A stretch of 39,700 nt of DNA, from positions 1 through 39,700 of the IMG/VR virus record IMGVR_UViG_3300020045_004042. One strand, 5' to 3'. Each line of letters begins with the position of its first letter. Position 1 is the first letter of the stretch. The translations under genes and the position numbers were made by a program. This DNA comes from a virus. Its lineage: Duplodnaviria; Caudoviricetes. This document shows, one piece after another, positions 24,007 through 38,682 of the stretch. Under the pieces are notes generated by a model. That model was not told the origin of the DNA and did no database searches. It saw only the letters and a program-made list of their open reading frames with translations.

Positions 24007-24230
24007 ATAAGGACCTTATTATTGAAGCGCTTGAGGCATTAATCGAAAAGAAAACGGCTGATATAGCGGAGATTTCTTTAGACAATAATTACCATTTCTC
24101 GGTATGGACTGCACTTATTGATTACATAGGCCAAAGAGGTGGCAAAAAAGAAATTAACGAAGCAACGGCCATGCTAAACGCTGACCATAAAAAACGACTG
24201 CAACGATATATAGATGAAAACGCTGCGTAA
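24003..24230 (+). CDS. Hypothetical protein
   Basis: 75 aa, GAGG RBS. Confidence 0.7.
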   Translation: MNKDLIIEALEALIEKKTADIAEISLDNNYHFSVWTALIDYIGQRGGKKEINEATAMLNADHKKRLQRYIDENAA

Positions 24231-24259
24231 TAACAGCGCATTAAATGACGGGGGTATAC
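24228..24259 (-). repeat. Decayed, internally deleted attC-like site
   Basis: TAATAAC..TTAAATGACGGGGGTATAC resembles the TTGAATGACGGGTTATAC arm of intact sites. Confidence 0.5.
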
Positions 24260-24263
24260 AATA

Positions 24264-24517: not shown

Positions 24518-24523
24518 AACCCC

Positions 24524-24751
24524 ATGGACAGCGCAATGAGTGAGAAATTAACAAAAACGGCACTAAAAAACGAATTGACGCGGCGTATAGATAGGTTTGA
24601 ATCTATGTACCAATTCGGGGAAGGTAAGCCATGGCTTACACCCACGCCTGAAAACTCGCATTTATACGTAATGTATGGCCGATATTGCGCACTGAAAGAA
24701 ATGCGGTGGCAAATTAAAAACGGGTTGTTTATCCATGGGTTCAGTTTATAA
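24524..24751 (+). CDS. Hypothetical protein
   Basis: 75 aa; stop codon abuts a truncated att site. Confidence 0.65.
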   Translation: MDSAMSEKLTKTALKNELTRRIDRFESMYQFGEGKPWLTPTPENSHLYVMYGRYCALKEMRWQIKNGLFIHGFSL

Positions 24752-24770
24752 TCTAAACTAAGAGTTATAC
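24746..24770 (-). repeat. Truncated attC-like site
   Basis: AACTAAGAGTTATACA (24756-24771) is identical to 34347-34362 of an intact site. Confidence 0.65.
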
Positions 24771-24785
24771 ACGAGGTTTAAGGAA

Positions 24786-24965
24786 ATGCTTAGATATTTA
24801 ATGAAACATACGTTTAGAGATAAATACAACGGCTGTGAAGGTGTTGATTATTACACGATTGATGGCGATGCAGAACAAGTTGAGCATAGACTGAGAAGCG
24901 GAGGACGTGACGAAGAAAGCCACGAACGACACGAGCTTATAAATGTGGAAGTTTTAGATGTATAA
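24786..24965 (+). CDS. Cassette-borne hypothetical protein (59 aa)
   Basis: MLRYLMKHTFRDKYNGCEG...EVLDV*; flanked by GTTATAC and GTATAAC. Confidence 0.7.
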   Translation: MLRYLMKHTFRDKYNGCEGVDYYTIDGDAEQVEHRLRSGGRDEESHERHELINVEVLDV

Positions 24966-24995
24966 CGCGAAATAGACACCTAATCGGTGTATAAC
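24960..24995 (-). repeat. Array-terminal attI-like site, copy 1
   Basis: GTATAAC-GCGAAATAG-ACACCTAATCGGTGTATAA, 32/35 identical to 35715-35749. Confidence 0.6.
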
Positions 24996-25025
24996 AAATT
25001 ATTATGTTTTTTGTACTGGATCAAA

Positions 25026-25253: not shown

Positions 25254-25254
25254 T
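25226..25254 (+). promoter_or_regulatory. Sigma70 promoter of the replication operon
   Basis: TTGTAC-17-TATAAT with extended -10 TG. Confidence 0.75.
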
Positions 25255-25259
25255 TAAAC

Positions 25260-25360
25260 TGTTTTTGGTGTACCGAGTGCGAAACGTTAAACCAAAAACA
25301 TTAGTTTTTATATTAAACCCCGTAACTTCATTGTTCGCACCAATGAGGCCGGGGTTTTTT
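25260..25360 (+). ncRNA. Structured leader RNA: two hairpins with complementary loops, ending in a terminator
   Basis: Stem 25260-69/25291-300; loop GTGCGAA is complementary to loop TTCGCAC (25334-40) of the hairpin AAACCCCG...CGGGGTTTTTT. Confidence 0.65.
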
Positions 25361-25368
25361 ATTGGGAT

Positions 25369-25650
25369 TTGAAAATGAATAAGCAAGAATTAATTAGCAG
25401 GATAAATAAATCGAAATATTTAACAGCAAGTTGCTGGAGCACTTATCAGAAAGACGGAGATATCAATTGTATTTGGCTTCGCCCTAAAAATCATATGGGG
25501 CCATATTTTAATACATGGTGGGCCGATGATGAAAGATATGATCATACTCGAACATTATTCATAAAATGGCTAGATTCAGTTGGTTGGTGGATAGATATTG
25601 AAGATTACGGAACCTATATGCTAATCCATCAATGGAACAATAATGTATGA
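25369..25650 (+). CDS. Hypothetical Trp-rich protein
   Basis: About 91-93 aa, first gene after the leader, coupled to the initiator. Confidence 0.7.
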   Translation: MKMNKQELISRINKSKYLTASCWSTYQKDGDINCIWLRPKNHMGPYFNTWWADDERYDHTRTLFIKWLDSVGWWIDIEDYGTYMLIHQWNNNV

Positions 25651-26390
25651 GCGGTTGGATTTGCTTACATCGAGAAATAACAGATCATTGGATATGGACT
25701 GATTCAGAAAAATTAAAAGCGTGGGTTGACATGATTCTGCTAGCGAATCACGAAGATAAAAAGTTTCTTATAAAAGGCCAATTATTAGAATGCAAAAGAG
25801 GTCAGCTTGCATATAGTCAGGAATCTTTAGGTGAGCGCTGGAAATGGACTCGAGGAAAAGTTAGAAATTTTTTAAATATTTTAGAAAAAGACTCAATGAT
25901 TACGCACAAAAGCAACCATCTAACAACTATCATAACTATATGTAATTACAACAAATTCCAAGACAAACAACCAGATGAACAACCAGCTGAAAGCCAGCTG
26001 ACCGACATCTCAACGCCAGCTGAAAGCCAGCTGACCGACACAAACAACAATGTAAACAACTATAACAACTATAACAATGAAAACAATAAATATATATATA
26101 CTGAAAAATCTTCCCGAAAAGAAAAAAAACAAACAGAAATTGACTTACTGCATTCGGCCGGAATAGATGGAGAAATAGCAATTGATTTTATAACTCACAG
26201 AAAAGCTAAATCAGCCCCTATTACAAAAACGGTTATCGATGGTTATGCAAGAGAGGCTAAAAAAGCAAACATATCGCTAATCGATGCGGTACGGATTAGC
26301 ATTGAACGTGGATGGAGAGGGTTTAAAGCGGATTGGTTAAAAGAGGAAGCGCCAGAACCAAAAAAACCACATAGGGTTATATGGCAATGA
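25647..26390 (+). CDS. Replication initiator (lambda O-like)
   Basis: GWICLHREITDHWIW...KRGQ...ITICNYNKFQ N-domain, repeat linker, SIERGWRGF C-domain; upstream of the helicase. Confidence 0.85.
   Translation: MSGWICLHREITDHWIWTDSEKLKAWVDMILLANHEDKKFLIKGQLLECKRGQLAYSQESLGERWKWTRGKVRNFLNILEKDSMITHKSNHLTTIITICNYNKFQDKQPDEQPAESQLTDISTPAESQLTDTNNNVNNYNNYNNENNKYIYTEKSSRKEKKQTEIDLLHSAGIDGEIAIDFITHRKAKSAPITKTVIDGYAREAKKANISLIDAVRISIERGWRGFKADWLKEEAPEPKKPHRVIWQ
25971..26135 (+). repeat. Putative replication origin: iterons plus AT-rich tract
   Basis: 25-bp direct repeat 25983-26007/26016-26040; five CCAG(C/A)TGA units; A/T-rich run follows. Confidence 0.75.
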
Positions 26391-27664
26391 ACAGAGAAAC
26401 ACTGGAATTAATCATTGTCGGTATTTTGTTGGCATTCCCGAACGAAGCAACAAAAATTGATTTAGAGATCGAAGATTTTGCAACCCATCCTTGGAAGTTA
26501 GTTTTTCAGGCTATCCGGTCTGTTTTATCTGCCGGCCTGGAAGTCGATGTTTTTTCCGTAAAGGAAAAGGTTGGCGATATAGTTGATTTGTCTGATTTGG
26601 CTTACGCTCAAAAAGACGCCGCCTCACCTGCAAACATTGGCCACTATGCGGGACTGTTAAAAAAATACGGGCGGGAAGAAAGACTAAAGATTTTGTGCGT
26701 TAAAACATTGACTGCCATTGAAGACAAAAAAGATGTTGATAAAATCAAGGGCCGGTTATTGACAAGACTGTCTGAGATAGACGAAAGAGAAGAGCGGCTA
26801 GATTTAACAATGAAAGACCTTTCCAGGCTTGCTGTTGATTATATTGAAACTGCACAGGAGGCTAGAGACAACGGCAAAACAATAGGGATTCCAACGGGGA
26901 TTTATGAGGTAGATAAAAACTGCGGTGGCTTACATAACTCAAACCTTATCGTCGTAGGAGCAAGGCCTGGAATGGGAAAAACAGCTCTGGCATTGTCTTT
27001 GGCTGTCAATATGGGCAAAAAAGGCTTTAAAGTTGGGTTCGTCTCGACTGAAATGAGCGGAGTAGAAGTTGGCTTAAGGCTGATGTCGTTAATCTCAAAT
27101 GTTCCATCAGAAAAACTACGGAATGCTAACCTGTCAGAACAGGACTACAGCAAGTTAATGCTGGCATCAGGGAAATTAAAAGATTTGCCGATAAGGGTTT
27201 TTGACAGGCCATCCTGCACGCTTTCTGACATTATGGTTCAAGCAAGAGCTTGGATGCTAACCGGCGGTGTTGATGTCCTGATGGTTGATTATCTGCAAAG
27301 ACTGCAGTCAGACGTAAAACAAGATAGCCGCGTTCGTGAAGTTGGAAAATATGCTTCCGGATTAAAAACGGTGGCTAGAAGTATGAAAATCCCGGTTATA
27401 GCGCTATCGCAAATAAATCGATCCTCAACAAAAAGAGAGGAAAAAAGACCGACTATGTCCGATTTGCGGGATTCAGGAGAGATTGAGCAAGAAGCGGACA
27501 TGGTATGGCTGCTTCACCGGGAATCTGTCTATGACGATAACGCAAACAAAGAAGACGCCGAAATTATTATAGACAAAAACAGACATGGCCCGATTGCGAT
27601 GGTCAAAACATGCTGGAATCCTGAAATAATGAGATGGGGGAATAACGGTGATGATTATTATTAA
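26381..27664 (+). CDS. dnaB: Replicative DNA helicase, DnaB family
   Basis: GARPGMGKT, STEMS, VDYLQ, LSQINR, SDLRDSGEIEQEAD, KNRHG. Confidence 0.95.
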   Translation: MAMNRETLELIIVGILLAFPNEATKIDLEIEDFATHPWKLVFQAIRSVLSAGLEVDVFSVKEKVGDIVDLSDLAYAQKDAASPANIGHYAGLLKKYGREERLKILCVKTLTAIEDKKDVDKIKGRLLTRLSEIDEREERLDLTMKDLSRLAVDYIETAQEARDNGKTIGIPTGIYEVDKNCGGLHNSNLIVVGARPGMGKTALALSLAVNMGKKGFKVGFVSTEMSGVEVGLRLMSLISNVPSEKLRNANLSEQDYSKLMLASGKLKDLPIRVFDRPSCTLSDIMVQARAWMLTGGVDVLMVDYLQRLQSDVKQDSRVREVGKYASGLKTVARSMKIPVIALSQINRSSTKREEKRPTMSDLRDSGEIEQEADMVWLLHRESVYDDNANKEDAEIIIDKNRHGPIAMVKTCWNPEIMRWGNNGDDYY

Positions 27665-27788
27665 TTGTGCATAATAATATATCAGGAACCGCTTAAAAAT
27701 GACCATGGTTAAACGAAAAATAAAAAGCAATGGTATTTGATAGGTAAGTATAAAAACTAACGTACATAGCAAAAATAATTGGTGAAAA

Positions 27789-28244
27789 ATGACCACTCTA
27801 TTCTTAAGAAAAATCCACAACGTTTTTATCCCAGCCGACGCAATAACGCAGGCTGAAATGGAAACCATGCACGATTGCGAATATAAAGCGGAAGTGACGA
27901 AGCCTAGAAATTATTCATTCCTTAAAAAATTTTTTGCTTTGGTGAAAGTAGCGTTCGACGCATGGGAAGGGCCGGTAACCGAATATAAGGGTATGCCCGT
28001 AGAAAAGAATTTGGAGCGATTTAGGAAGGATTTACTCATTATGGCTGGGTATGGCTACCCTGTTGTAAATATCGCCGGGAAAGTCGCATTTGAGGCCAAA
28101 TCAATAGCATTCGGCAGTATGGATGAAGTGGAGTTTGAAGAATTGTACAGCAAGGTGATCGACGTGATTCTGGCCAATGTGCTGAATCACTACACGCGAG
28201 ACGATTTAGATGTGATGGTCAACAATATATTGAGGTTTAGCTGA
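27789..28244 (+). CDS. DUF1367-like nin-region protein
   Basis: KPRN..F.KKFFAL...FRKDLLIMAGY...AKSIAFGSMDEVEFEELY. Confidence 0.75.
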   Translation: MTTLFLRKIHNVFIPADAITQAEMETMHDCEYKAEVTKPRNYSFLKKFFALVKVAFDAWEGPVTEYKGMPVEKNLERFRKDLLIMAGYGYPVVNIAGKVAFEAKSIAFGSMDEVEFEELYSKVIDVILANVLNHYTRDDLDVMVNNILRFS

Positions 28245-28245
28245 T

Positions 28246-28428
28246 ATGAAATATGCAGTGATGGTAAAAGAGTTTAGGCAAAAAATGATATGCCACCACG
28301 GTGAAATATGGGTAAAGGACAAGGATTATACAAACTACGTCAATATAGACGAACGCGGCGTCTGGGATACCAAAGAGGAAGCCGAACAGGCGAAATTATA
28401 TGATGATGAAATAGTGGTGGGGGTTTAG
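28246..28428 (+). CDS. Hypothetical protein
   Basis: 60 aa; a decayed paralogue lies at 28585-28759. Confidence 0.7.
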   Translation: MKYAVMVKEFRQKMICHHGEIWVKDKDYTNYVNIDERGVWDTKEEAEQAKLYDDEIVVGV

Positions 28429-28674
28429 ATGATAAAAATATCAAGAAAGGAAATGACCCTGACAGAATATCTACGCACCTACAATAAATGGCGAAGAGGG
28501 GAATATGAAAATTATGAAATTCCTGATCCTAAAGAAGTTGGTGAGGCTATTGACGAAGTAATAGCGTTATTGGAGCAGCGCCGATATGCAGTAATGGTGG
28601 ATGATTATGTTCAAGACGAAATGTGCAGCCCTTCTGAATCCTGGGTAAAATTGGGAGTATTCGCATTACGTTAA
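28429..28674 (+). CDS. Hypothetical protein fused to the start of a duplicated gene
   Basis: LRTYNKWRRG...PDPKEVGEAID followed by YAVMV...WVK. Confidence 0.65.
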   Translation: MIKISRKEMTLTEYLRTYNKWRRGEYENYEIPDPKEVGEAIDEVIALLEQRRYAVMVDDYVQDEMCSPSESWVKLGVFALR

Positions 28675-28759
28675 TATAAACGAGCGTGGAGTTTGGGACG
28701 CCAAGAAGGCGGCGAGATAACATATACGTTTTGATTATGAAATAGTGGTGGAGCTATAA
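28585..28759 (+). pseudogene. Degenerate duplicate of 28246-28428
   Basis: YAVMV..WVK, then after a frameshift WEYSHYVNINERGVWDAKKAAR*HIRFDYEIVVEL. Confidence 0.7.
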
Positions 28760-28760
28760 A

Positions 28761-29069
28761 ATGCAAAAACGGAAACCTTACCGAAACAAAAAAATACTGG
28801 ATCATGCAAAAGGGCAGGAATGTCAAATCAGGCTTCCGGGTTGCTTGCACAATACCGAAACAACAGTAGCTGCTCATATACATGCCTATGAATTCGGGCA
28901 TGGTATGGGCCAGAAAGCGGATGATTTTGCCATAGCCTTCGTCTGTAGCAAGTGCCATTTGATACTAGACGGCGCGCATAATTTTGATGTCGACTGGCTT
29001 GAAGGCATGTTCCACAAAGCGAACACTCGAACAATTGGCATTTTGTTCAGGGACGGCATTATAAAATGA
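28761..29069 (+). CDS. DUF1364/YbcO-like zinc-binding putative nuclease
   Basis: AKGQECQIRLPGC...ETTVAAH...GMGQKADD...CSKCH. Confidence 0.8.
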   Translation: MQKRKPYRNKKILDHAKGQECQIRLPGCLHNTETTVAAHIHAYEFGHGMGQKADDFAIAFVCSKCHLILDGAHNFDVDWLEGMFHKANTRTIGILFRDGIIK

Positions 29070-29091
29070 AGCACAAAAAATAAAATACCTC

Positions 29092-29120
29092 TTGACATTG
29101 CTATAAATTTATAATACTAT
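29092..29120 (+). promoter_or_regulatory. Sigma70 promoter of the recombination/cassette operon
   Basis: TTGACA-17-TACTAT with an A-rich UP element. Confidence 0.75.
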
Positions 29121-29149
29121 AGCCACAAGCTATTAAACAGGAGGGGAAA

Positions 29150-29737
29150 ATGAAAAGCGAAAGCATAGCCGAGCTGGCTAAAGCGCTAAGCAAAGCGCAA
29201 GGCGATTTTGATCATGCAAAAAAAGATTCAGCAGGCCCATTTGCAAAAAGCTTTTATGCTGACCTTGCAAATGTTATTGATGCGGCAAAAAAACCGCTAG
29301 CAGATAACGGACTTGCGGTAAGTCAACTTATTGTTGCCGATGAAAACGGTAACGTAAATTTGGAAACGATATTAATGCACGCTTCCGGGGAATGGATTAG
29401 TGGTACTTATCCGATTCGCCCCGTTAAAACTGATCCTCAATCCATGGGTTCAGCGATAACTTACGCAAGGCGCTATTCTTTTTCGGCTATTACCGGCATA
29501 GCGGCTGATGATGATGACGGAAATGAAGCCAGCAAGCCAAAACCTGATAGACAAAGAGTTGATAAGCCAATTGAGAAATCCTACTGGCCGGAATCTAAAT
29601 TTAACGAAAAAAAGGAAGAATGGAAAGAAAAAGTGCTATCAGGCGAACGAACTGTAGAGCAATTATTGACTGTTATGCAAGTGCGTCATTTATTTACTGA
29701 GTCACAAAAGGGAGAGATTCAATCATGGGCACAATAG
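29150..29737 (+). CDS. erf: ERF-family ssDNA annealing protein
   Basis: YADL...GSAITYARRYSFSAITGIAADDDDG signature. Confidence 0.92.
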   Translation: MKSESIAELAKALSKAQGDFDHAKKDSAGPFAKSFYADLANVIDAAKKPLADNGLAVSQLIVADENGNVNLETILMHASGEWISGTYPIRPVKTDPQSMGSAITYARRYSFSAITGIAADDDDGNEASKPKPDRQRVDKPIEKSYWPESKFNEKKEEWKEKVLSGERTVEQLLTVMQVRHLFTESQKGEIQSWAQ

Positions 29738-30894
29738 CTCAAGACCATAAATTGATGGTATCGGCGTCGAATTGTCATAGGATAATGACGTGCCTGGATA
29801 AAGATTGCCTTCCGCCAGGCGCGATATCATATATCAGCGATATGTTTAATCTGTCTGATGATGATTTCAAAAATACCTATATGTCGGACGACATGATAAA
29901 CGGTGTTGAAAAAGAGCCGGAAGCACTTGACGCATTATCCGAATATTTGTGGCTTGATATACTATTCACTGGACACACACAAAAAAGGCTTTATGCCGGT
30001 AAAGATTATTATGATTTTTTATCCGCTCTACCTGACGGGATTATATGGTCACTTGATGATTTAATTTATAGTGTCGAAGTTAAATGTTTAAATGAAAAAA
30101 ACCACCAATTTGTTTGTGAGAATATTACAGACGGTGATCGGCTTAAAAAACATGACTATAAAAAATATTGCCAAGTACAGACGCAAATGCTTTGTGTAGA
30201 AAAATCATATATACAAGATTCTGTAGGAATCATTGCCTTTTACAATGAAATTTGTGAACCCCCCCTGCACATTGTATGGGTTGATCCCGATCAAGAATGG
30301 CGCGATAGACTTCATTCCCGGCTGGGCTTAGCTAAAAAACTCTACCTGGAAATACAGGGCGAACCACAAAAACAGGTAATCCCATTAGCGCACGATACCG
30401 AAATAATAACGCCGGATATGGTTAGCTCACTGCTTAGTGATCCAAAGTTTTTAATGGAAATGGTTTATGATCATTTTGGCGTATCGATAGTTGACGGGCA
30501 TTATACTGGCGGCGATATAATTGATTGCAGTACCAAGAAGGGCCGTGACCAGGCTATCAAGTTACGATCCAAAATAACCAAGGTCAGGACTGGCGCTGTT
30601 TCTATATCAAAAAAGCTGGTAGAAGAGTATAAGTTAAAATGCAAACAAGAGCTTGAATTCCGCAAAACCATTGAGGCCGACTGTAAAGCACTCAGTGATT
30701 ATCTATGCCAAACCCTGAACGCATGGGAATCTGGGCAAAAGCAAAATGTTGAAGTAAAAAAAGAAATTAAAGAAGCAGTCAAGGAAGATAACGTAAAAAA
30801 CGTACTAGACCCGATAAAAAATATGTTCGAAGCCGGTAAAATTGGCATAGCCGAGGCTTTAATGATGGCCTATCAAGCAGGATTGGACACATGA
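29725..30894 (+). CDS. YqaJ/lambda-exonuclease-like nuclease with long C-terminal coiled-coil extension
   Basis: SAS..GVEKEPEA..ALPDG..VEVKC..QVQTQM; adjacent to ERF. Confidence 0.8.
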   Translation: MGTIAQDHKLMVSASNCHRIMTCLDKDCLPPGAISYISDMFNLSDDDFKNTYMSDDMINGVEKEPEALDALSEYLWLDILFTGHTQKRLYAGKDYYDFLSALPDGIIWSLDDLIYSVEVKCLNEKNHQFVCENITDGDRLKKHDYKKYCQVQTQMLCVEKSYIQDSVGIIAFYNEICEPPLHIVWVDPDQEWRDRLHSRLGLAKKLYLEIQGEPQKQVIPLAHDTEIITPDMVSSLLSDPKFLMEMVYDHFGVSIVDGHYTGGDIIDCSTKKGRDQAIKLRSKITKVRTGAVSISKKLVEEYKLKCKQELEFRKTIEADCKALSDYLCQTLNAWESGQKQNVEVKKEIKEAVKEDNVKNVLDPIKNMFEAGKIGIAEALMMAYQAGLDT

Positions 30895-31049
30895 AAACAG
30901 ATAAATCGAAATCGTTACACATAAGCGAAAAAACACATAATCGGCTAAAGTTGTACAGTGTTCACGCTGGTAAAACTATCGGAAAGTTGGTCGATGAGTT
31001 TATTGTTTTTTGCCTTGATCAACTTGATATTGAGGATAAGAAAAAATAA
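30891..31049 (+). CDS. Ribbon-helix-helix DNA-binding protein (52 aa)
   Basis: KSLHISEKTHNRLKLYSVHAGKTIGKLVDEFI; ATGA-coupled. Confidence 0.65.
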   Translation: MKTDKSKSLHISEKTHNRLKLYSVHAGKTIGKLVDEFIVFCLDQLDIEDKKK

Positions 31050-31054
31050 ATGAT

Positions 31055-31072
31055 TTGAATGACGGGTTATAC
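31055..31072 (-). repeat. attC-like half site (right arm only)
   Basis: 31055-31074 is identical to 34027-34046. Confidence 0.7.
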
Positions 31073-31077
31073 ATATT

Positions 31078-31311
31078 ATGACTATTTATGAAAAACACAT
31101 TTCTCACATTGAGGCTGTTAACAATGCCAAAACCGTCGAAGAACATGCGGCATTAGATTTGTACCTAAGCGCATGGTTAACTGGTGTCAGGGATGCTGGC
31201 GGAGTACTAAGCCATATTGCGGCAGACATGTTTTATTTAGATCAAGGAATTGACAGGCCAATGTGTGGCGGAATATGGCTGGATTGGAAGCCAGAAAAAA
31301 CAGGTGTATAA
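31078..31311 (+). CDS. Cassette ORF, hypothetical
   Basis: 77 aa; GTTATAC before, stop inside GTATAAC. Confidence 0.8.
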   Translation: MTIYEKHISHIEAVNNAKTVEEHAALDLYLSAWLTGVRDAGGVLSHIAADMFYLDQGIDRPMCGGIWLDWKPEKTGV

Positions 31312-31394
31312 CGCAGAGCTAACCGGGCGCGGCCCGGAAAGCTAAACAATGAAACCGTACTATAACCGCGCTCCGGTTGAGCGCACTGTTAGGC
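31306..31394 (-). repeat. attC-like site (89 bp)
   Basis: GTATAAC GCAGA GCTAACC GGGCGCGG...CCGCGC t CC GGTT g AGC GCACT GTTAGGC. Confidence 0.85.
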
Positions 31395-31406
31395 TTGGAG
31401 AGTGAA

Positions 31407-31607
31407 ATGTATATACCAGAACCTGGAACTATTACGCATGGGAAATATAGAGAGCTTAGCGAATCAATGGGTAATCTCAATGTTGGGGAATGTCTTACTG
31501 TACCAATTTCTTTAAGAAATGGTAAAGGGATAATATCTAAGCGACTAGGTATAAAAGTTAAAACAAGAAGAAATGGCGATAAATTAGATATTTATAGAGT
31601 TTCATAA
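31407..31607 (+). CDS. Cassette ORF, small basic protein (66 aa)
   Basis: ATG 31407 with GGAG RBS; stop inside TCATAAC. Confidence 0.75.
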   Translation: MYIPEPGTITHGKYRELSESMGNLNVGECLTVPISLRNGKGIISKRLGIKVKTRRNGDKLDIYRVS

Positions 31608-31674
31608 CGCAGAATTAACGCGCGCCCGCGAGGACGCTGAAAATTGCTGGAAGAAATATAACACGGCGTTAGGC
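31602..31674 (-). repeat. Deleted/hybrid attC-like site including a 19-bp minimal site (31656-31674)
   Basis: Left arm nearly identical to the 35431 site; then ATATAAC-ACGGC-GTTAGGC. Confidence 0.65.
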
Positions 31675-31680
31675 GTGGAA

Positions 31681-31875
31681 ATGAAAACAGAATTAAAAGT
31701 CACTTGTAAGAAGTGCGGCGGCGCGATGGCGCCCGGCAAAGCAATGCAGCAAACCTGGACAGGATCGCTAGACTTTCCTGATGAAAAGCATTACGTGACC
31801 ATTTCGCCTGGCGGTAGCGGGAAGCTCATTGAATGCATGAAATGTAAAGGGTGCGGATGGAGCATGACTTTATAG
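31681..31875 (+). CDS. Cassette ORF, zinc-ribbon protein
   Basis: CKKCGG...CKGCGWS. Confidence 0.75.
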   Translation: MKTELKVTCKKCGGAMAPGKAMQQTWTGSLDFPDEKHYVTISPGGSGKLIECMKCKGCGWSMTL

Positions 31876-31901
31876 GCGTACAACATACCAAATTGTAACC
31901 A

Positions 31902-32351
31902 ATGACGATATTATCGATTGATCCCGGAATGAAATCAGGTGCCGCCATTTTCGACAACGGGCAATGTATATTTTTCAAAACATTGCGAGGGCCAGTCGAA
32001 ACAATAGATTTTATTCGTGCGCAAAGCCCTGCTTTAGTTATATGCGAGGATAGTCGCCTTCAATCACATGTTTTTACCGCGCCAAGCCTCAACGCTCAGG
32101 CCAGATTGAAAGTAGCGAGGAATATAGGAATGGTAGATATGTGCTGTTATCTGATACAGGCCGCGTGCGAAAGATTGCAGATCGGATACCTGGCCGTATC
32201 GCCAAAAGGGAAAGGGGGAAAGCTTGATTCAAAAAGCCTTCAAAAATTAACGGGTATCACATTATCAACTAACCAGCATGAGCGAGATGCTATCGTTTTA
32301 GGCTGGCCGTATCGTAATGAAAAAATGGTGGAACATGATCGAATTTGTTGA
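31902..32351 (+). CDS. RuvC-like (RNase H fold) Holliday junction resolvase
   Basis: ILSIDPG..SG, VICED and NQHERDA acidic motifs. Confidence 0.75.
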   Translation: MTILSIDPGMKSGAAIFDNGQCIFFKTLRGPVETIDFIRAQSPALVICEDSRLQSHVFTAPSLNAQARLKVARNIGMVDMCCYLIQAACERLQIGYLAVSPKGKGGKLDSKSLQKLTGITLSTNQHERDAIVLGWPYRNEKMVEHDRIC

Positions 32352-32442
32352 GGCTTTAAGCGCATTATCGTGGCCTGGCGCTTTTGTTTTGGGGTGCATG
32401 TTTTTAGCGATTACCGTTATTGGCTATACATATTTTAAGTGA
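32335..32442 (+). CDS. Small membrane protein (35 aa)
   Basis: MIEFVEALSALSWPGAFVLGCMFLAITVIGYTYFK. Confidence 0.5.
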   Translation: MIEFVEALSALSWPGAFVLGCMFLAITVIGYTYFK

Positions 32443-32756
32443 TGATGCAAACTTCAAAATCAGTTATTCGTTGGATGTGCCAATCTTGTGATTGGATAGG
32501 CGATGATGCAGAATTGCTGCGCGCACCAAGCCCGTTTGACGCGGAAGATACCATTGTCGGATGCCCTAAGTGCAAGGCTGTAGACGATTTTAAAAGCGCC
32601 TGTGATGAACCAGGCTGCGGACAAGACGCGACATGTGGATTTCCAGCGCCTGGCGGATACCGGCGCACATGCGGAAAGCACATGCAAAATCAATGGCCCG
32701 GTGAAGTGTGCAGAGGTCATAACGCAAAGCTACCCGGGCGCGGCGCGAATGATTGA
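32442..32756 (+). CDS. Cys-rich zinc-binding protein; C-terminus reads into an att arm
   Basis: CQSC..CPKC..CDEPGC..TCGKH; ends HNAKLPGRGAND. Confidence 0.75.
   Translation: MMQTSKSVIRWMCQSCDWIGDDAELLRAPSPFDAEDTIVGCPKCKAVDDFKSACDEPGCGQDATCGFPAPGGYRRTCGKHMQNQWPGEVCRGHNAKLPGRGAND
32717..32745 (-). repeat. attC-like half site (left arm only)
   Basis: TCATAAC GCAAA GCTACCC GGGCGCGG, a variant of the 31306/35131 arm. Confidence 0.65.
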
Positions 32757-32870
32757 ATAATGAGTTCTATGTCATGTGCGAGCAGAAATGCACCCGTAAT
32801 GGCCGGACACCGGGAAATTGGATACTTGGGATCGGCTGAGAGTATGCCGACAAATACCCGGCCACATGAC

Positions 32871-32959
32871 GCCTAACGCAATAATTAACGTGTCCGCACG
32901 ATGCGATCTGAACAAAACCTCTGAGATTTCCCGGCTCAGCGCTGAATAATGGGTTATAC
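32871..32959 (-). repeat. attC-like site, degenerate stem (89 bp)
   Basis: GCCTAAC GCAATAATTAACG...GCTGAAT AATGG GTTATAC. Confidence 0.7.
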
Positions 32960-32987
32960 ATTTAAATTAAAATAGGATAAACTGAAA

Positions 32988-33293
32988 ATGAAGATGCTGA
33001 CAATTGAAATGCCGGACGGAAGCAAATGGGGCGTGCCTGTGGAGGTTATTGCACGGAGCCGCGCCGCGCACTACGCGCACGAATTCGACGGCGATGTGGA
33101 GCGCTCGATGGCTGAGGACACGATGCCGCTGTTTAATAGCGATCACTACGAAATTGAAGACTGGGCGGCCAACAACATGAACTGGAGCGGCGTGTCGGAG
33201 CAAGCGAAGAAGCTGCAAGACGCGCCAGCGCCTGACTTTCAAGAGGCATGGATAAATGGCAAAAAGGCGGTAATCGAACAGGATGATTTATGA
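32988..33293 (+). CDS. Cassette ORF, phage hypothetical (acidic)
   Basis: MPDGSKWGVPVEVIA...EIEDWAANNMNW. Confidence 0.8.
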   Translation: MKMLTIEMPDGSKWGVPVEVIARSRAAHYAHEFDGDVERSMAEDTMPLFNSDHYEIEDWAANNMNWSGVSEQAKKLQDAPAPDFQEAWINGKKAVIEQDDL

Positions 33294-33427
33294 AAAAGAA
33301 AAGACCGAGACAGCGAAAACTTAGAAAATGTGAGCGAGGGATTAAAACAAAATCTTTCAATCGCGGATGCCGATATGTAATGACAAATAACGGTCTTCTG
33401 CCTCGAATGTGGGCTACTGGTAATTGA
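33290..33427 (+). CDS. Small basic ORF (45 aa), second ORF of the same cassette
   Basis: MKKKRPRQRKLRKC...; ATGA-coupled. Confidence 0.45.
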   Translation: MKKKRPRQRKLRKCERGIKTKSFNRGCRYVMTNNGLLPRMWATGN

Positions 33428-33428
33428 T

Positions 33429-33515
33429 GTATAACGCAGAATTAACGCGCGCCCACGACGAACTTTAAACAAAGCCGCGATGCTTCTGGGCGTCGCGTTG
33501 AATGACGGGTTATGC
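33429..33515 (-). repeat. attC-like site (87 bp)
   Basis: GTATAAC GCAGA ATTAACG CGCGCCCA...TGGGCG t CG CGTT g AAT GACGG GTTATGC. Confidence 0.85.
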
Positions 33516-33536
33516 GTGAAAACTTTGGAGATCATA

Positions 33537-33713
33537 ATGGGTGATACATGCGACATGGTAATCATTGAAACAGCCGACTTTGATATTTTGTGGGAATGCT
33601 CTGAATGCAAGACAGAACACAAGGCGACGAAGAAGTTCGAGAAGAATAAGGTATGTCCGAAGTGCGGGAAAGAGATTGCGAATTGGATTGGCTTGGATGA
33701 ATATGACTTATAA
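33537..33713 (+). CDS. Cassette ORF, zinc-ribbon protein (58 aa)
   Basis: GGAG RBS; WECSEC...CPKCG; stop inside TTATAAC. Confidence 0.75.
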   Translation: MGDTCDMVIIETADFDILWECSECKTEHKATKKFEKNKVCPKCGKEIANWIGLDEYDL

Positions 33714-33796
33714 CGCAGAATTAACCAGACCGCCCGCTGGATTTAAAACAACACCACGACTCGCGGCGGCGGGTCTGGTTGAATGACGGGTTATAC
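33708..33796 (-). repeat. attC-like site (89 bp)
   Basis: TTATAAC GCAGA ATTAACC AGACC...GGTCT GGTT g AAT GACGG GTTATAC. Confidence 0.85.
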
Positions 33797-33797
33797 G

Positions 33798-34034
33798 ATG
33801 TTTCATATTAGAAAAAACAAATATGGCAGGGCTTTTTGTCAGCCTAAAAGAGGTTTATCCATCTTTTCTATGTACTTTCGAGGATGGAGATCTTTCGGCT
33901 TGGGCGGATGGTGGAGCAAACCAAGCAAAAACCAGGGGCTAATTGAAAAAAACATGACGCATAACGCAGAATTAAGTCGCGCCGGTAGTGCGCCAAACGA
34001 AACCGCTGGCGTTAACAGCGTCGGCCTTGAATGA
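33798..34034 (+). CDS. Cassette ORF, basic; reads through the next att site
   Basis: MFHIRKNKYG...HNAELSRAG...GLE*; weak RBS. Confidence 0.5.
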   Translation: MFHIRKNKYGRAFCQPKRGLSIFSMYFRGWRSFGLGGWWSKPSKNQGLIEKNMTHNAELSRAGSAPNETAGVNSVGLE

Positions 34035-34044
34035 CGGGTTATAC
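33959..34044 (-). repeat. attC-like site (86 bp)
   Basis: GCATAAC GCAGA ATTAAG...CTT g AAT GACGG GTTATAC. Confidence 0.8.
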
Positions 34045-34272
34045 ATGACAGAACAAATCAGCCATTGGCAATTGCAAATAAGCGATCCGCAACGGTCATA
34101 TAAAAGCACAAAAGATATTCATGTGCTTGCCCCAGAAATGATAGATGCGGTTAAAAAAGTTGGCGAACTATATCCAAATGCTAGGATTTTTAATTGCATC
34201 CACAAAGGCACGTTTGAAGGCGACTTGTATGTGCGTCCTAAAAACGTTATTCGTGAGCAAGATAATGTATAA
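34045..34272 (+). CDS. Cassette ORF, hypothetical (75 aa)
   Basis: ATG immediately after GTTATAC; stop inside GTATAAC. Confidence 0.7.
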   Translation: MTEQISHWQLQISDPQRSYKSTKDIHVLAPEMIDAVKKVGELYPNARIFNCIHKGTFEGDLYVRPKNVIREQDNV

Positions 34273-34361
34273 CGCCGTGTTGATCGGCACGCCGCCGCAC
34301 GGAACTTTAACCGCGCAAATGCGCTAAATGGCGGCTTGTCCGCTTGAACTAAGAGTTATAC
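34267..34361 (-). repeat. attC-like site (95 bp)
   Basis: GTATAAC GCCGT GTTGATCGG..GCCGCC...GGCGGC..CCGCTT g AAC TAAGA GTTATAC. Confidence 0.8.
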
Positions 34362-34365
34362 AACA

Positions 34366-35136
34366 ATGATAAAGCTACTGCACGGTGATTGTAGGAAGTT
34401 TTTGTTTGATGGCACGATTGACCCGGATAGTATTGACTTAACCGTGACCTCTCCGCCTTATGACAATTTTAGAACTTACAACAATTCTTCCTCCTGGGGA
34501 TGGGCTGAATTTAGTGCGGTTGCTGCCGGATTGTGGAGAGTAACAAAACCCGGCGGCGTTGTGGTTTGGGTGGTTGGTGATGCCACCATAAAAGGTAGTG
34601 AGACCGGAACCAGCTTTGAACAGGCTTTAGCCTTTAAGAAAATGGGCTTTAACTTGCATGATACTATGATATATGAAAAAGGAGTAGTAGCTTTCCCTGA
34701 GAGCGTGAGATACAACAATAAAATGGAATATATGTACGTTTTTAGTAAGGGGAAACCAATCACCTTTAACGGTATAAAAGATCATAAAAATGTGTCGGCT
34801 GGTCGTAAAGTTACAGGCTATGACCGGACAAAAGAAGGAGGGCAGAAAATAAGATCGGGTGCTGGAAATATTTACCCTGATAATTCATTAAGGGGCAACG
34901 TCTGGAAAATGTGGAACCAAAGCCGAGGCGAACATACCCGACATCCTGCTACATTTCCTGAACAATTAGCACAAGATCACATAGTCACATGGAGTAACGA
35001 AGGCGACACTGTGTTTGATCCTTTTGTTGGCAGTGGCACAACTGGAAAGATGGCAAAACAACTAAATCGCAAATTCATAGGCGTTGAAATAGACACAGAG
35101 TATTTCAAAATAGCCAGTGAGCGAATTGGTGTATAA
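34366..35136 (+). CDS. Orphan beta-class amino DNA methyltransferase (N4-C/N6-A), cassette-borne
   Basis: TSPPY catalytic motif N-terminal; HPATFP and DPFVGSGTT SAM motif C-terminal. Confidence 0.92.
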   Translation: MIKLLHGDCRKFLFDGTIDPDSIDLTVTSPPYDNFRTYNNSSSWGWAEFSAVAAGLWRVTKPGGVVVWVVGDATIKGSETGTSFEQALAFKKMGFNLHDTMIYEKGVVAFPESVRYNNKMEYMYVFSKGKPITFNGIKDHKNVSAGRKVTGYDRTKEGGQKIRSGAGNIYPDNSLRGNVWKMWNQSRGEHTRHPATFPEQLAQDHIVTWSNEGDTVFDPFVGSGTTGKMAKQLNRKFIGVEIDTEYFKIASERIGV

Positions 35137-35223
35137 CGCAGAGCTAACCGGGCGCGGCCCGAATGGAGTTTGAACATGACAAAGAACCAAATGGCCGCGC
35201 TCCGGTTGAGCGTTGAGTTAGAC
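35131..35223 (-). repeat. attC-like site (93 bp)
   Basis: Core arms identical to the 31306 site; different loop and right spacer; ends GTTAGAC. Confidence 0.85.
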
Positions 35224-35236
35224 GTAGGATATTTTA

Positions 35237-35470
35237 ATGAGACAAGAAATTGAAGACCCACGCGAATGGCGCGTAAGCATGAGCGGCTTTAGCATCAAGA
35301 CCGGATGGGGCGACGAGAAAAAGATAATAGCCTCCTATCCTGGCAAGGCTCAGCCCCTAGATGGTGATAAATTTCAGGAATGGCTAGAGACCGCAGAACA
35401 TATCTGCCAATTGCACAATGCGACTTTGACGCCTAACGCAGAATTAACGCGCGTCCGTGAGGACGCTTAA
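35237..35470 (+). CDS. Cassette ORF; C-terminus reads into the att arm
   Basis: AGGA RBS; AEHICQLHN..PNAELTRVREDA. Confidence 0.75.
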   Translation: MRQEIEDPREWRVSMSGFSIKTGWGDEKKIIASYPGKAQPLDGDKFQEWLETAEHICQLHNATLTPNAELTRVREDA

Positions 35471-35517
35471 CAATGCCGCGATGCTTCCAGGCGTCGCGGT
35501 TGAATGACCTGTTATAC
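35431..35517 (-). repeat. attC-like site (87 bp)
   Basis: GCCTAAC GCAGA ATTAACGCGCG...GCG t CGCGGTT g AAT GACCT GTTATAC. Confidence 0.85.
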
Positions 35518-35531
35518 ATTTTAGGTAATTT

Positions 35532-35720
35532 ATGAACGCTATTGAAGAATTAAAGTTGGCAAGCGAAGAAGTTGCAAGGCAGAGAAAGTTGATTGAGTTA
35601 GAAATGGAAGAAAAAGGAAATAAAGGAAAATTATGGCAAAACGGCATGTGTAAAGCATGGCCTGATTACGAGAAGGCAATATCTAGGCAAGCGCAATTAA
35701 GAGAATTGCACGGTGTATAA
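35532..35720 (+). CDS. Cassette ORF, hypothetical (62 aa)
   Basis: AGGT RBS; stop inside GTATAAC. Confidence 0.75.
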   Translation: MNAIEELKLASEEVARQRKLIELEMEEKGNKGKLWQNGMCKAWPDYEKAISRQAQLRELHGV

Positions 35721-35750
35721 CGCTTAATATACACCTAATCGGTGTATAAT
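35715..35750 (-). repeat. Array-terminal attI-like site, copy 2
   Basis: GTATAAC-GCTTAATAT-ACACCTAATCGGTGTATAA; contains the TATACACC-5-GGTGTATA inverted repeat. Confidence 0.6.
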
Positions 35751-35773
35751 ATGTCAACTTATGAAATAACGAT

Positions 35774-35797
35774 GTTCCCGAAACGAATTTCGGGAAC
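35774..35797. terminator. Perfect hairpin at the convergence of early and late arms
   Basis: GTTCCCGAAA-CGAA-TTTCGGGAAC; no adjacent U-run, so terminator function is uncertain. Confidence 0.4.
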
Positions 35798-35819
35798 GCC
35801 GGTTATCTTGCTTATTTAA

Positions 35820-36203
35820 TTATGCTTCAGGTGGTGAAACAATATCCGGGTTCAGCTCATCAATTGATGTGTTAGCTGCGGCGGCTTGGGCAAGCGCCGT
35901 AGTGTTCGCCATCAATGATGCTTTCAAGGCGTCCAGGGCAGTTAAATCAATAGATCCCTGTGAATCAACCAAAGCCTTTACTTCGGCAAAGATTTTTTCG
36001 ATTTGGGTTTGAATGCTCGAAATCAAAGACGTATTGCCTTCAATTTCAACTGCTAATTCTGCTATTTTTGCGTCAAATTCAGCTTGTGTTGCCATTACAA
36101 TTTCCTCTAAGTGTTTAAGTTTAAGTAAGATTTCGCTTAGTTTTTCATCATTAGCATGGATGTTAATCGTAAATAGGCTCATTTTGTTAGTTCCATCACG
36201 CAT
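35820..36203 (-). CDS. Ala-rich coiled-coil hypothetical protein (start possibly 36182)
   Basis: Heptad pattern; last gene of the late operon. Confidence 0.7.
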   Translation of the reverse strand: MRDGTNKMSLFTINIHANDEKLSEILLKLKHLEEIVMATQAEFDAKIAELAVEIEGNTSLISSIQTQIEKIFAEVKALVDSQGSIDLTALDALKASLMANTTALAQAAAANTSIDELNPDIVSPPEA

Positions 36204-36370
36204 TTGTTATACTCAATAACCGCCTCTTTCAGGTCGATTAAAAAGTGTGGTAAACATTCAGCCGTACAGGGGAAAGTCCGCCCCTTTAGTATATCCTCTC
36301 CGACAATTCTACCCGCTACGTGCGCAATATTTCCGGCGGCCAATAGTGCTTTATGCTGATTTTCTGTCAT
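36179..36370 (-). CDS. Hypothetical protein
   Basis: 63 aa, coupled at both ends. Confidence 0.6.
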   Translation of the reverse strand: MTENQHKALLAAGNIAHVAGRIVGEDILKGRTFPCTAECLPHFLIDLKEAVIEYNKCVMELTK

Positions 36371-36921
36371 TTAGATGCCTGGATAACTCGCTTTTTTTTT
36401 ATATCATTAACGTGGTGTGTCAGTCGTTCTATTTTTTCATCAACGATTTTCTTTTCGACCTCAACCACGCGCTCTGAAACTGATTTTATTGCGTCATTGA
36501 CATAGTTAATGTCATTGGCGTTTTTTAACGCCGTGTCTCTGACTTCGGTGTATTGAATTAACGCCGTGGTTCCTACCGCAATAGCGGACGATGCGGCAAC
36601 CGTACCGATCCGGTTCCAAAATGCGAGTTTGCCGTTTATTTTAGTTTGTGCTACGGCTTCCTCAAGTTTATCCTGCGTGTATTTTCTTTCGTGCGCTCTG
36701 AACTGCTCATTTAGCAGGTGTAATTCCGCTGCTATTTGGTTATCTGATCGGGCTATGCTGTCTTTCTGATCGTTCAGGATATTAACAATGTCACGTATGG
36801 CATTGTTAATGTTTTTCATGAAGATCGCTAGAACTTTCGTTTCTTCATTGACCGAAGTTCGGATGACCTTGTCAAGATCATCGTCCACCATGTCATTTAT
36901 TCTTCTTCTGTTCTCTGTCAT
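36367..36921 (-). CDS. Coiled-coil protein with one hydrophobic segment (lysis region)
   Basis: 184 aa; ENRRR start; IGTVAASSAIAVGTTALI. Confidence 0.65.
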   Translation of the reverse strand: MTENRRRINDMVDDDLDKVIRTSVNEETKVLAIFMKNINNAIRDIVNILNDQKDSIARSDNQIAAELHLLNEQFRAHERKYTQDKLEEAVAQTKINGKLAFWNRIGTVAASSAIAVGTTALIQYTEVRDTALKNANDINYVNDAIKSVSERVVEVEKKIVDEKIERLTHHVNDIKKKRVIQASK

Positions 36922-37595
36922 TGCGCGGCGCCGTCCATAGGTTTATCGGTGGAAATGTCAACGCAGGCCACGTTATCGGTTTTACATAGGGATGTGATCC
37001 AGTCATAGGCGGTGTCTGCATAAAGACCTACTGAGTCGGCTCTATAGGCATCGGATATAATGAATTCCGTAAATTCTCTTGAAAGCTCGGATTCGTTAAT
37101 GGCTTCTTCAATAACGACACCGGCACCGTTATTTTTGGGCACTGGGCTTTGACAAACCTTTCGTTTGCGCACCCCACTATTAAGCAGCTTAAGATTATCA
37201 GCATGTAACGCGTTAATTTCATTCTCATGGCTCCTATTGATCATGTCAATCCGTTGAGAGAGATTATTGTATTTTGCAGTTTCTTCCATTGTTTTCCGTG
37301 TTGCTTCCTTCTGTTCAGCATCATATTTTATTTGCCATGCCTGATCGGCGCGGCGATATCCGTCATATTCAAGCGCGCCTATAACCGCGCCAATCAATAG
37401 CACGATACCTAGAAACTTAGCCGCTTGAATGTACGGGTGATCATGTCTTGCGCTTTTAAGCTTATCATGCAACATAAAACCAACCTTGAACACTATCGCG
37501 ATAAAAATCAATGTGAACAGAAACTGAGCTATTTTTACTGAATAAAAAACCAATGTGCCGACAATGTACCCGAATAAATACATGGCTTCAATCAT
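36918..37595 (-). CDS. i-spanin (Rz-like)
   Basis: N-terminal TM segments, GYRRADQAWQ, coiled coil, ELSREF..AYRAD; contains a nested lipoprotein gene. Confidence 0.7.
   Translation of the reverse strand: MIEAMYLFGYIVGTLVFYSVKIAQFLFTLIFIAIVFKVGFMLHDKLKSARHDHPYIQAAKFLGIVLLIGAVIGALEYDGYRRADQAWQIKYDAEQKEATRKTMEETAKYNNLSQRIDMINRSHENEINALHADNLKLLNSGVRKRKVCQSPVPKNNGAGVVIEEAINESELSREFTEFIISDAYRADSVGLYADTAYDWITSLCKTDNVACVDISTDKPMDGAAQ
37028..37228 (-). CDS. o-spanin lipoprotein (Rz1-like), nested in another frame
   Basis: AGGAG RBS, lipobox LIVG|C, Pro-rich CPKITVPVSLLKKP. Confidence 0.8.
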   Translation of the reverse strand: MRMKLTRYMLIILSCLIVGCANERFVKAQCPKITVPVSLLKKPLTNPSFQENLRNSLYPMPIEPTQ

Positions 37596-38008
37596 AACAA
37601 GAACAGCTCGTGTTCTAATTTGCGCTGCATAACAAGTTTGTTTAAAGGAATAGCTTGATCATAAATATACCTGCTAAAGCTGTTAGCAACGCCCTTCAAA
37701 TTGTTTTTGACCAATTCGCGCTTCATTGCCGATAATTTAAATCGCCATAGGCCTTCGCAGTATATAAACGATACCAGCGAGTCAAACTGGTTTTGATTCA
37801 ATTCAAACCCTTTAAGGTTTTCTTCTGCAAAATGCAAATCTTTTATTAGCAAATCAGTTGCTTCGTCTTCCGTTATCCCATCAGGATAACTTTCGTCACA
37901 TACATGCCCATAACCTATTTTTTCTTGACCTTTAGAATTAAAAAAGGACTTTTCCCTGAAAGGGACGAACATTTTAATTAGTTTAATTCCATTTTCTGAA
38001 GTTTTCAT
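37592..38008 (-). CDS. GH24 lysozyme homologue with substituted catalytic residues (138 aa)
   Basis: MKTSENGIKLIK..IGYGH..ITEDEA..LNQNQFDSLVSF..ELFL; true start ATG 38008 (ATGA overlap). Confidence 0.8.
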   Translation of the reverse strand: MKTSENGIKLIKMFVPFREKSFFNSKGQEKIGYGHVCDESYPDGITEDEATDLLIKDLHFAEENLKGFELNQNQFDSLVSFIYCEGLWRFKLSAMKRELVKNNLKGVANSFSRYIYDQAIPLNKLVMQRKLEHELFLL

Positions 38009-38682
38009 AATGTAACCCCGTTTGCAACGATTGGCTTCTTCGATAAGTCCCAATTGCCACATTTTAACATATCCTTAAAACACCGAGTACGATAAGTGCA
38101 GTTCCGCAATAGTTCATTAGTATGATTCACAAACCAGGCGTGACGAGTCTCTACATACTGTTGAAGCCATTTTTGTTCTTCGCCGCCATTGATCGGAACG
38201 GCTTCGGGGAATTGCCTTCTTAAATGGACGGGAACCGCCCCGGAATGAATAAACGAATCATACACGACAAGCAGCGCAAGTGCTGAAGTAAATCCATTCT
38301 CATTGCACCATTTCTTCGCGGGCTCATAATAATAACGGTCGAATATTAAATCCTGGCATTCGCGCATTTTCGGATCATTCAATCCGGCAAATCTAAGTGC
38401 GGCCTTAAAATTTTTATTATCAGCCAATGTCCATTTTCCTATTTGGTCAATACCCTTGGCTATCTCAGCCCGGTAAATGCCGTTCGCATTTTTATACAGG
38501 AGAAGCAGTTCTTTGAGCCTGCCAAACTCCGTTACTTGCGCCTTTCCATAGGTTACTTGCCGCTGTTTACCTGGCCCGTCTGGCAAGATAGTAACTTGGT
38601 GGTAGACCCCCTCTTTTTTTCCTGTTTCAAAACAGTTTATAACTTTATCGATTATGTCTTTTTGTTCGGGTGAAATTCTCAT
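38005..38682 (-). CDS. Chitosanase-like (GH46, lysozyme fold) probable endolysin
   Basis: VINCFETG...PDGPG..QVTYG..TEFGRL...YYEPA...YDSFIHSG...RT. Confidence 0.75.
   Translation of the reverse strand: MRISPEQKDIIDKVINCFETGKKEGVYHQVTILPDGPGKQRQVTYGKAQVTEFGRLKELLLLYKNANGIYRAEIAKGIDQIGKWTLADNKNFKAALRFAGLNDPKMRECQDLIFDRYYYEPAKKWCNENGFTSALALLVVYDSFIHSGAVPVHLRRQFPEAVPINGGEEQKWLQQYVETRHAWFVNHTNELLRNCTYRTRCFKDMLKCGNWDLSKKPIVANGVTL

Follow-up and report, generated by a model that had tools for sequence, protein, structure and literature searches.

Reversed gene cassettes on normally built attC-type sites in a phage genome without its own integron integrase

The array and its genomic setting

The complete virus record IMGVR_UViG_3300020045_004042 (Duplodnaviria; Caudoviricetes), 39,700 bases long, with direct terminal repeats at its ends and referred to here as the window, contains ten attC-type hairpins set between small plus-strand genes at 31306–35517. 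Seven of these hairpins are near-intact and three are decayed or chimeric (Table 1). The polarity of these sites relative to their genes, and its bearing on how the genes move, are the subject of this report.

The minus strand carries the terminase, portal, major head and tail genes of the phage, and the plus strand a module for replication and recombination (DnaB, NinB, Erf, RecE-like and resolvase; all PHROG matches) together with all callable genes of the array. The complete genome gave no match to the integron integrase model TIGR02249 (IntI), and no match to a phage integrase was found among the 60 window proteins scanned; the array is thus a CALIN, in which attC sites cluster with no integron integrase gene beside them, and not a complete integron with an adjacent intI. 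No Rfam family reached its gathering score in 22000–37000, scans for promoters and terminators gave results no better than chance, and blastn of a window hairpin against cultured phages returned no useful match. No excision circle is claimed, the contigs of one sequencing run (5% of words) having given only incomplete joints with short sides.

Site anatomy and the predicted recombining strand

Read on the plus strand, the sites follow the pattern NNNTAAC, five or six bases, a seven-base L box, a variable stem, an eight-base L box with an extra G, five bases and GTTRRRY, and an unpaired T lies on the same (right) arm as the extra G, further into the stem. At 31306–31394 this reads GTATAAC GCAGA GCTAACC ... 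GGTT[G]AGC GCACT GTTAGGC, plus a second unpaired T further in, so that the initial annotation was correct both in placing the extra bases on the right arm of the plus strand and in reading the reverse complement of this site as a canonical attC. The inverted R''/R' and L''/L' boxes, the spacers of 5–6 bases and the length (86–95 bases in seven window sites) agree with attC sites, which span about 55–141 bases. The extrahelical G in L'' and the further unpaired T stand opposite the AAC of the bottom strand, which is the rule for attC bottom strands (Nivina 2016, PMC5027507; Bouvier 2009, PMC2727003), and the same layout is given for the aadA7 bottom strand in Table S3 of Qi 2023 (PMC9892861).

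Further tests gave the same strand. A structural detector placed four sites above threshold in 31000–35800, against none in 100 shuffles; read on the plus strand, all four bear the extra base on their right arm, and in class 1 and 2 integron controls 9/9 detected sites had this layout on the strand opposite their genes. A strand call by model had been suggested as a check; a sequence-only model built from 11 bacterial attC sites in gene-sense orientation matched the window on the minus strand in 4/4 cases, one strongly (E-value 1.2e-4) and three weakly (0.098, 0.77 and 7.7), and matched a Vibrio control array on its gene strand in 10/10. With the R boxes forced to pair, the plus-strand fold was more stable than the minus-strand fold in eight of nine window sites. 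In a canonical cassette the gene lies on the top strand, is followed by its attC and is expressed from the cassette promoter Pc; here the genes lie on the bottom strand. As all callable genes are on the plus strand and the controls run the other way round, the claim that the ORFs (open reading frames) run antisense to canonical polarity is borne out. An ORF of at least 59 amino acids (aa) ends exactly on the junction TAA in 6/11 junctions, and other ORFs end earlier or read into the hairpin.

Extent of the reversed layout

Viral, bacterial and metagenome loci were gathered by scans with patterns derived from the site family of the window, the bacterial set comprising 137 of about 170. Just past the site, a gene led by a ribosome-binding site (RBS) was found on the bottom strand (sense) in 70 of 155 viral cases and on the top strand (antisense) in one; in bacterial loci, among the matches listed, the counts were 19 sense and 34 antisense of 168, and in control integrons one and eight of 14. 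PHROG families were matched by 36/134 sense candidate ORFs and by 5/116 antisense ones, four of these five belonging to the facing module as its integrase, portal or tail genes. The sense cargo includes DNA methyltransferase, Mom-like, Lar-like, HNH and pyrophosphatase genes. The arrays of two published phages, PH101 (locus L053, KR534323:75900–78000) and MW202573 (L054, 2070–2702), are inverted. The PH101 sites, which are similar to those of the window, are recombined by IntI1, and the bottom strands that Qi 2023 (PMC9892861) found more recombinogenic are the strands of the GenBank genes. Inverted arrays of the same site family also occur in prophage-like regions of Methylococcales and Azoarcus genomes (L122, L124 and L161).

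The hairpins themselves carry a similar bias. Of the long viral sites (n=245), 79 have an RBS with an ATG inside the hairpin on the bottom strand and six have one on the top strand, against eight and eight, among the matches listed, of the bacterial sites (n=143), so that translation in the viral arrays would often start inside the hairpin. In the window, loop ATGs at 31346–31409, 33480–33540 and 35178–35260 open short or in-frame ORFs that cross the right arm into the next gene.

Phage integron integrases, attI-type sites and the likely host

Three related viral records with inverted arrays (G001–G003) encode an IntI above the TIGR02249 cut-off directly behind attI and on the strand of the cassette genes, and carry phage structural genes together with a separate phage integrase. 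A search with one phage IntI recovered 53 viral loci encoding relatives, of which 30 distinct intact sequences form a phage-only clade (Shimodaira–Hasegawa-like approximate likelihood ratio test, SH-aLRT, 97 in a quick tree; FastTree support 0.92 with 39 bacterial IntI). The catalytic R-K-H-R-H-Y residues are kept in 39/39 aligned viral IntI, and the closest bacterial match among 400 genomes of the class was 64%. In this clade intI lies at the 3' end of inverted arrays, behind a conserved attI (L423–L475, e.g. L289:1906–2937, L267 and L344). The 34 viral intI loci with at least 1.5 kb upstream hold 45 sites on the intI strand and none opposite, and upstream of viral intI RBS-led genes are 37 sense and five antisense. 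A second phage integrase follows intI in only 11/30 clade loci (three queries), and no clade member above 60% identity was found in cultured phages. The virus Rctr41k (L523, KX853513.1) encodes an IntI-like protein, 45% identical to the phage clade, within a row of co-oriented small genes.

The array in the window ends at 35715 in the motif AAC-GCTTAATATACACC-TAATC-GGTGTATA, which is also found directly before intI in Methylobacter, Methylomicrobium, Nitrosomonas, Pseudomonas and other loci. The window holds two copies (24960 and 35715) against a shuffle mean of 0.025, both putative attI sites that match bacterial attI adjacent to intI. They are placed as in the top-strand reading of an ordinary integron, where attI starts the array, which indicates that the sites are normal and the genes reversed. 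In the Methylomicrobium family (Methylococcaceae), 17 copies of the motif occur in 9/151 genomes, six followed by intI and 13 with attC upstream. Several Methylococcaceae genomes hold 2–4 copies, 11/17 copies being without intI within 1.5 kb (L506–L522).

The hairpins point to the same bacteria: the one at 31306 is identical at 75/89 positions to a hairpin of a Methylobacter chromosomal array and the one at 33429 at 67/87 positions to a hairpin of a Methylomicrobium array, and all five methanotroph genomes with similar hairpins encode IntI. A methanotroph host thus probably lends its IntI to the phage.

A proposed mechanism and what moves

Taken together, these features make it very probable that the region is an integron-type array without an integrase of its own, with normal sites and reversed genes, in which the moving unit is a hairpin plus the gene downstream of it, likely cut at AA↓C (the arrow marking the crossover) on the mRNA-sense strand; the IntI making the cut would come from the host, probably a methanotroph. 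The plus strand would fold and be cleaved like any attC bottom strand, and cassettes would be released as circles and insert at attI, which lies at the distal end of a phage operon transcribed toward attI, so that no Pc promoter would be needed. An upstream phage promoter could serve all cassettes, a new one joining at the far end without breaking a gene, and the same reading direction would explain why these phages retain reversed cassettes and no others. The complete form would be that of temperate relatives in which an intI of their own lies behind attI. If the genes are co-directional with the replication fork, the recombining strand would be the lagging-strand template, an arrangement that raises excision (Loot 2017, PMC5371416).

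Comparison of related phages supports hairpin and downstream gene as the unit. Loci L020 and L031 share two units at 98–99.5% identity and in different order, running from the TAAC of the upstream hairpin to the next TAAC, one with a different left arm, and L037 and L040 share another such unit. The near-identical phage pairs L445/L446, L447/L448 and L450/L453 differ at AA↓C, their differences including an extra hairpin-plus-gene unit between the last cassette and attI; of the comparisons made, these pairs offer the best evidence for attributing the crossover to IntI. Units bounded by the G↓TT (= AA↓C) crossover are thus present in relatives, with no identical copy of a window cassette among them. 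The related phage G004, 86% identical over 29134–31050, matches the window from the TAAC at 24960 onward and has different genes upstream; its first array consists of wholly different cassettes, including a unit that the window has at 24240.

The initial annotation had each gene carry the site upstream of it. Among viral pairs that matched at 95% or more in one flank and were unrelated in the other, the two members had the upstream hairpin in common in 6/7 and the downstream hairpin in 1/10, and over all identities the downstream hairpin was common in one of 16 informative viral pairs, in which the L boxes differ; this comparison excludes, as uninformative, the numerous pairs that stem from one Pseudomonadales array of near-identical repeats. 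Across a gene, the flanking R boxes pair perfectly in 173/214 viral units, against 83 within the site and 56.5 after shuffling, and in bacterial arrays, among the matches listed, in 60/76 against 32; in the window all seven bases match in 5/11 across-gene and 1/10 within-site pairs. Pairing across the gene points to circular intermediates, the polarity not being given by pairing alone. The predicted crossover at the stop codon (TAA↓C) stands as regards AA↓C in the related-phage comparisons, and as regards the stop only at the 6/11 junctions given above.

Several observations weigh against this reading. The compared pairs, drawn from 639 distinct sites, are not independent, and at 80–94% flank identity 20/22 viral pairs have clearly different upstream hairpins, so that the claim of an upstream site travelling with its gene holds for close relatives and not for these. 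In the 80–94% pairs homology often begins at the right-hand GTT box. A pair at 97% (L235/L246) also has a replaced upstream hairpin, and the upstream hairpins of the gene at 32988 differ between the window and L079 at 90% DNA identity. Upstream hairpins that differ at lower identity, with homology from the right-hand GTT, indicate that a second route of some kind replaces hairpins in the course of time; chimeric and collapsed hairpins may come from such a route, for example homologous recombination in the conserved arms or R'' cleavage. The recombinogenic shape is the unconstrained lowest-energy fold on the plus strand for only 4/10 sites. A crude longest-ORF caller gave a much weaker strand bias (80 sense and 57 antisense at a threshold of at least 100 aa); it proved too noisy in GC-rich loci and was replaced by the RBS and PHROG tests. 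As the loci were collected with the patterns of this family, the counts are no description of phage attC sites in general. The array of phage TJE1 (L045) is canonical, so phage arrays are not all inverted, and the distinct phage cassette class proposed initially, which the strand counts and the phage-only IntI clade support, has this exception. The identity of the host is itself inferred.

Alternative explanations

The alternative that survives best, though it is improbable, is that the hairpins, though derived from attC, serve chiefly as boundary repeats for the homologous recombination proteins of the phage, with no need for an integrase. The Erf, RecE-like exonuclease, NinB and resolvase genes adjoin the array, some hairpins are chimeric with junctions inside or at the right arm, and the genome has no intI. 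Recent junctions nevertheless fall on AA↓C where homology is just 7–8 bases, attI included, and pairing of R boxes spans genes, the extrahelical bases and the base pairing persist despite sequence drift, and relatives encode an intact IntI at attI, all of which favour an integrase. That the geometry is as described and the enzyme a non-IntI tyrosine recombinase acting in trans from another phage or element is very unlikely, since the attI of the window matches attI beside the true IntI of methanotrophs and its hairpins match those of methanotroph arrays. It is scarcely credible that these are ordinary attC sites recombining on the minus strand, each gene travelling with its downstream hairpin and the inversion being a misreading: the frequent replacement of upstream hairpins at lower identity, with the junction at the right-hand GTT, would suit this, but the downstream hairpin is so rarely common to a pair (with different L boxes where it is), the extrahelical bases, the model strand and the attI position all mark the plus strand as the bottom strand, and the shared units and the near-identical pairs differing at AA↓C already contradict it.

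Reversed cassettes in bacterial arrays

The initial annotation had predicted that such cassettes, if captured by a host integron, would land antisense to Pc and be silent, and the predicted orientation is seen in three bacterial loci. The isolate Methylomicrobium sp. Wu6 has reversed small genes in the three cassettes adjoining attI and intI; a canonical cassette comes after them, and housekeeping genes lie past intI. In a Methylobacter metagenome-assembled genome (MAG), the attI-proximal cassettes are reversed and have window-like hairpins, three with clear RBS-led genes. On a contig of an Anaerolineae MAG, canonical cassettes are accompanied by a reversed unit with 94% identity to a unit of the phage locus L319, with the caution that the binning of MAG contigs can err. 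The reversed genes of the bacterial loci face attI. PHROG families were matched by 1/11 reversed genes from bacterial loci and by 5/12 canonical ones, so the case for a phage origin rests on hairpin likeness, size and two viral-locus matches. The reversed cassettes within bacterial arrays lie at L132:921–1868, L162:5720–6926, L089 and L146, those of Methylomicrobium sp. Wu6 and the Methylobacter MAG clustering beside attI.

The gene at 32988 is flanked by hairpins in the window and in L079, and no adjoining site was detected in 5/6 related loci, a pattern that hints that ordinary phage genes may become cassettes. Insertion by IntI at short GWT sites in genomes has been described (bioRxiv 10.1101/2022.09.11.507474). 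It is a tentative proposal, with somewhat less than even chances, that phages run an integron branch of their own, with a phage-only IntI lineage, their own attI and a mirror-image pool rich in anti-restriction genes, and that they turn ordinary phage genes into cassettes, lend and borrow integrases, and deposit cassettes in host chromosomal integrons; if so, phages would be a source of new integron cassettes.

Use of the same recombination sites with reversed genes would let phages add or swap small genes (methyltransferase, Mom-like, Lar-like and HNH) at the end of an operon, and it offers a rule for spotting candidate mobile anti-defence genes in phage genomes. Pipelines that assign a gene to its downstream attC mis-assign reversed cassettes. 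Two questions become testable: whether phages use the host integrase during infection, and where new cassettes originate.

Other features of the window

The coordinates of the array features are collected in Table 1. A third, decayed array at 24228–24993 consists of two collapsed sites and its own attI, and one of its units occurs in a different array of G004. At 35764–35808, between converging operons, lies a perfect 10-bp hairpin, terminator-like on the minus strand, with TAAC/GTTA flanks and no extra base. Beside the tail genes, two genes (2–1588 and 1603–2145) have signal-peptide-like starts and no PHROG match, the former covering the first 529 aa of a gene that runs off the window end. 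The lysis region (37592–38682) contains two adjoining candidate cell-wall enzymes, a lysozyme-type endolysin and a 225-aa protein without a PHROG match.

Table 1. Sites and genes of the arrays, in window coordinates.
Feature	Position	Strand	Remarks
attC-type hairpin	31306..31394	+	bottom-strand layout, right arm with extrahelical G and T; crossover predicted after 31311
Decayed site	31602..31674	+	L'' box lost, left arm intact
Decayed, chimeric short site	32717..32770	+	
Chimeric site	32871..32959	+	inner stem poor, boxes present
Intact attC-type hairpin	33429..33515	+	
Intact attC-type hairpin	33708..33796	+	
Near-intact attC-type hairpin	33959..34044	+	
Near-intact attC-type hairpin	34267..34361	+	heads methyltransferase cassette
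Intact attC-type hairpin	35131..35223	+	
Near-intact attC-type hairpin	35431..35517	+	
Putative attI-type landing site, array end	35715..35748	+	predicted crossover after 35720
Second putative attI-type site	24960..24993	+	closes small decayed array; outside 31306–35517
Collapsed site, right arm only	31055..31072	+	start of first array; present in G004 too
Terminal half site GTACAAC	31878..31884	+	precedes Holliday-junction resolvase gene; array boundary common to G004
Collapsed site	24228..24259	+	downstream sequence 88% homologous to first cassette of G004's other array
Collapsed site	24746..24770	+	right arm resembles that of 34267
Cassette gene, 77 aa	31078..31311	+	stop at junction TAA; no PHROG match
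Cassette gene, about 66 aa	31407..31607	+	stop at junction TAA; no PHROG match
Cassette gene, 66 aa	31675..31875	+	two CxxC motifs; relative in phage locus L234
Holliday-junction resolvase	31902..32351	+	backbone gene separating two arrays, no cassette
Cassette gene, 101 aa	32988..33293	+	phrog_17928
Cassette gene	33537..33713	+	weak match to Lar-like restriction alleviation protein (E 6.8e-6)
Cassette ORF	33798..34034	+	runs through junction into following hairpin
Cassette gene, 75 aa	34045..34272	+	relative in L013 (76% DNA), same TAAC end, then different hairpin
Cassette gene, DNA methyltransferase	34366..35136	+	phrog_67, E 4.9e-60; stop at junction TAA
Cassette ORF	35237..35470	+	runs into following hairpin
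attI-proximal cassette gene, 62 aa	35532..35720	+	stop at attI TAA

Comparison with known systems

Integrons are viewed as bacterial devices in which strand choice serves to direct genes away from Pc. A single cassette may be reversed and carry a promoter of its own, as in toxin–antitoxin cassettes whose gene is antisense to its attC, with one antitoxin-like example at L113. Such cassettes are isolated exceptions within canonical arrays; here whole arrays are reversed.

The closest likeness is to the phage CALINs of Qi 2023 (PMC9892861), which are also attC clusters without intI, carry methyltransferase cargo and are recombined by IntI1 with a bottom-strand preference. The text of that paper makes no remark on gene-versus-site polarity, which its figures and Dryad annotation file may show, and attI-ended inverted arrays, a phage IntI clade and inter-phage cassette swaps, which do not feature in that text, come from the present analysis. 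Among the integron literature considered, including Ghaly 2021 (PMC8618304), Buongermino Pereira 2020 (PMC7370490) and PMC13366799 and covering few subscription journals, Qi 2023 was the sole paper found on phage attC arrays, and none was found on reversed phage cassettes or a phage IntI clade. As far as the consulted parts of these sources extend, phage CALINs were already known, and the inversion, the two putative attI, the phage-only IntI clade and the inverted cassettes in methanotroph chromosomal arrays are new.

With bacterial integrons (Bouvier 2009, PMC2727003; Nivina 2016, PMC5027507; Loot 2017, PMC5371416) the arrays share R and L boxes, spacers, extrahelical G and T, the AA↓C crossover, attI at the array end and intI on the bottom strand behind attI, but here the bottom strand carries the genes, whose reading direction is toward attI and intI, each site preceding its gene. 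Nivina 2016 (PMC5027507) states that cassettes inserted so that they face the promoter have never been seen in mobile or chromosomal integrons; that statement concerns inversion of the whole cassette, whereas in the present arrays the cassette is inserted correctly and the gene within it is reversed. The inverted integron-integrase group, for example in Treponema (Cury 2016, PMC4889954), is alike in that intI and cassette genes are co-oriented. In the Treponema type, however, intI is flipped relative to attC, whereas in the phage loci, where the 45 sites upstream of intI all have the bottom layout on the intI strand, intI is normal relative to attC and attI and the genes are flipped. Judged by its sequence, the region in the window is therefore a CALIN with putative attI ends, apparently integron-like in its working, that departs from the canonical integron in the orientation of its genes.

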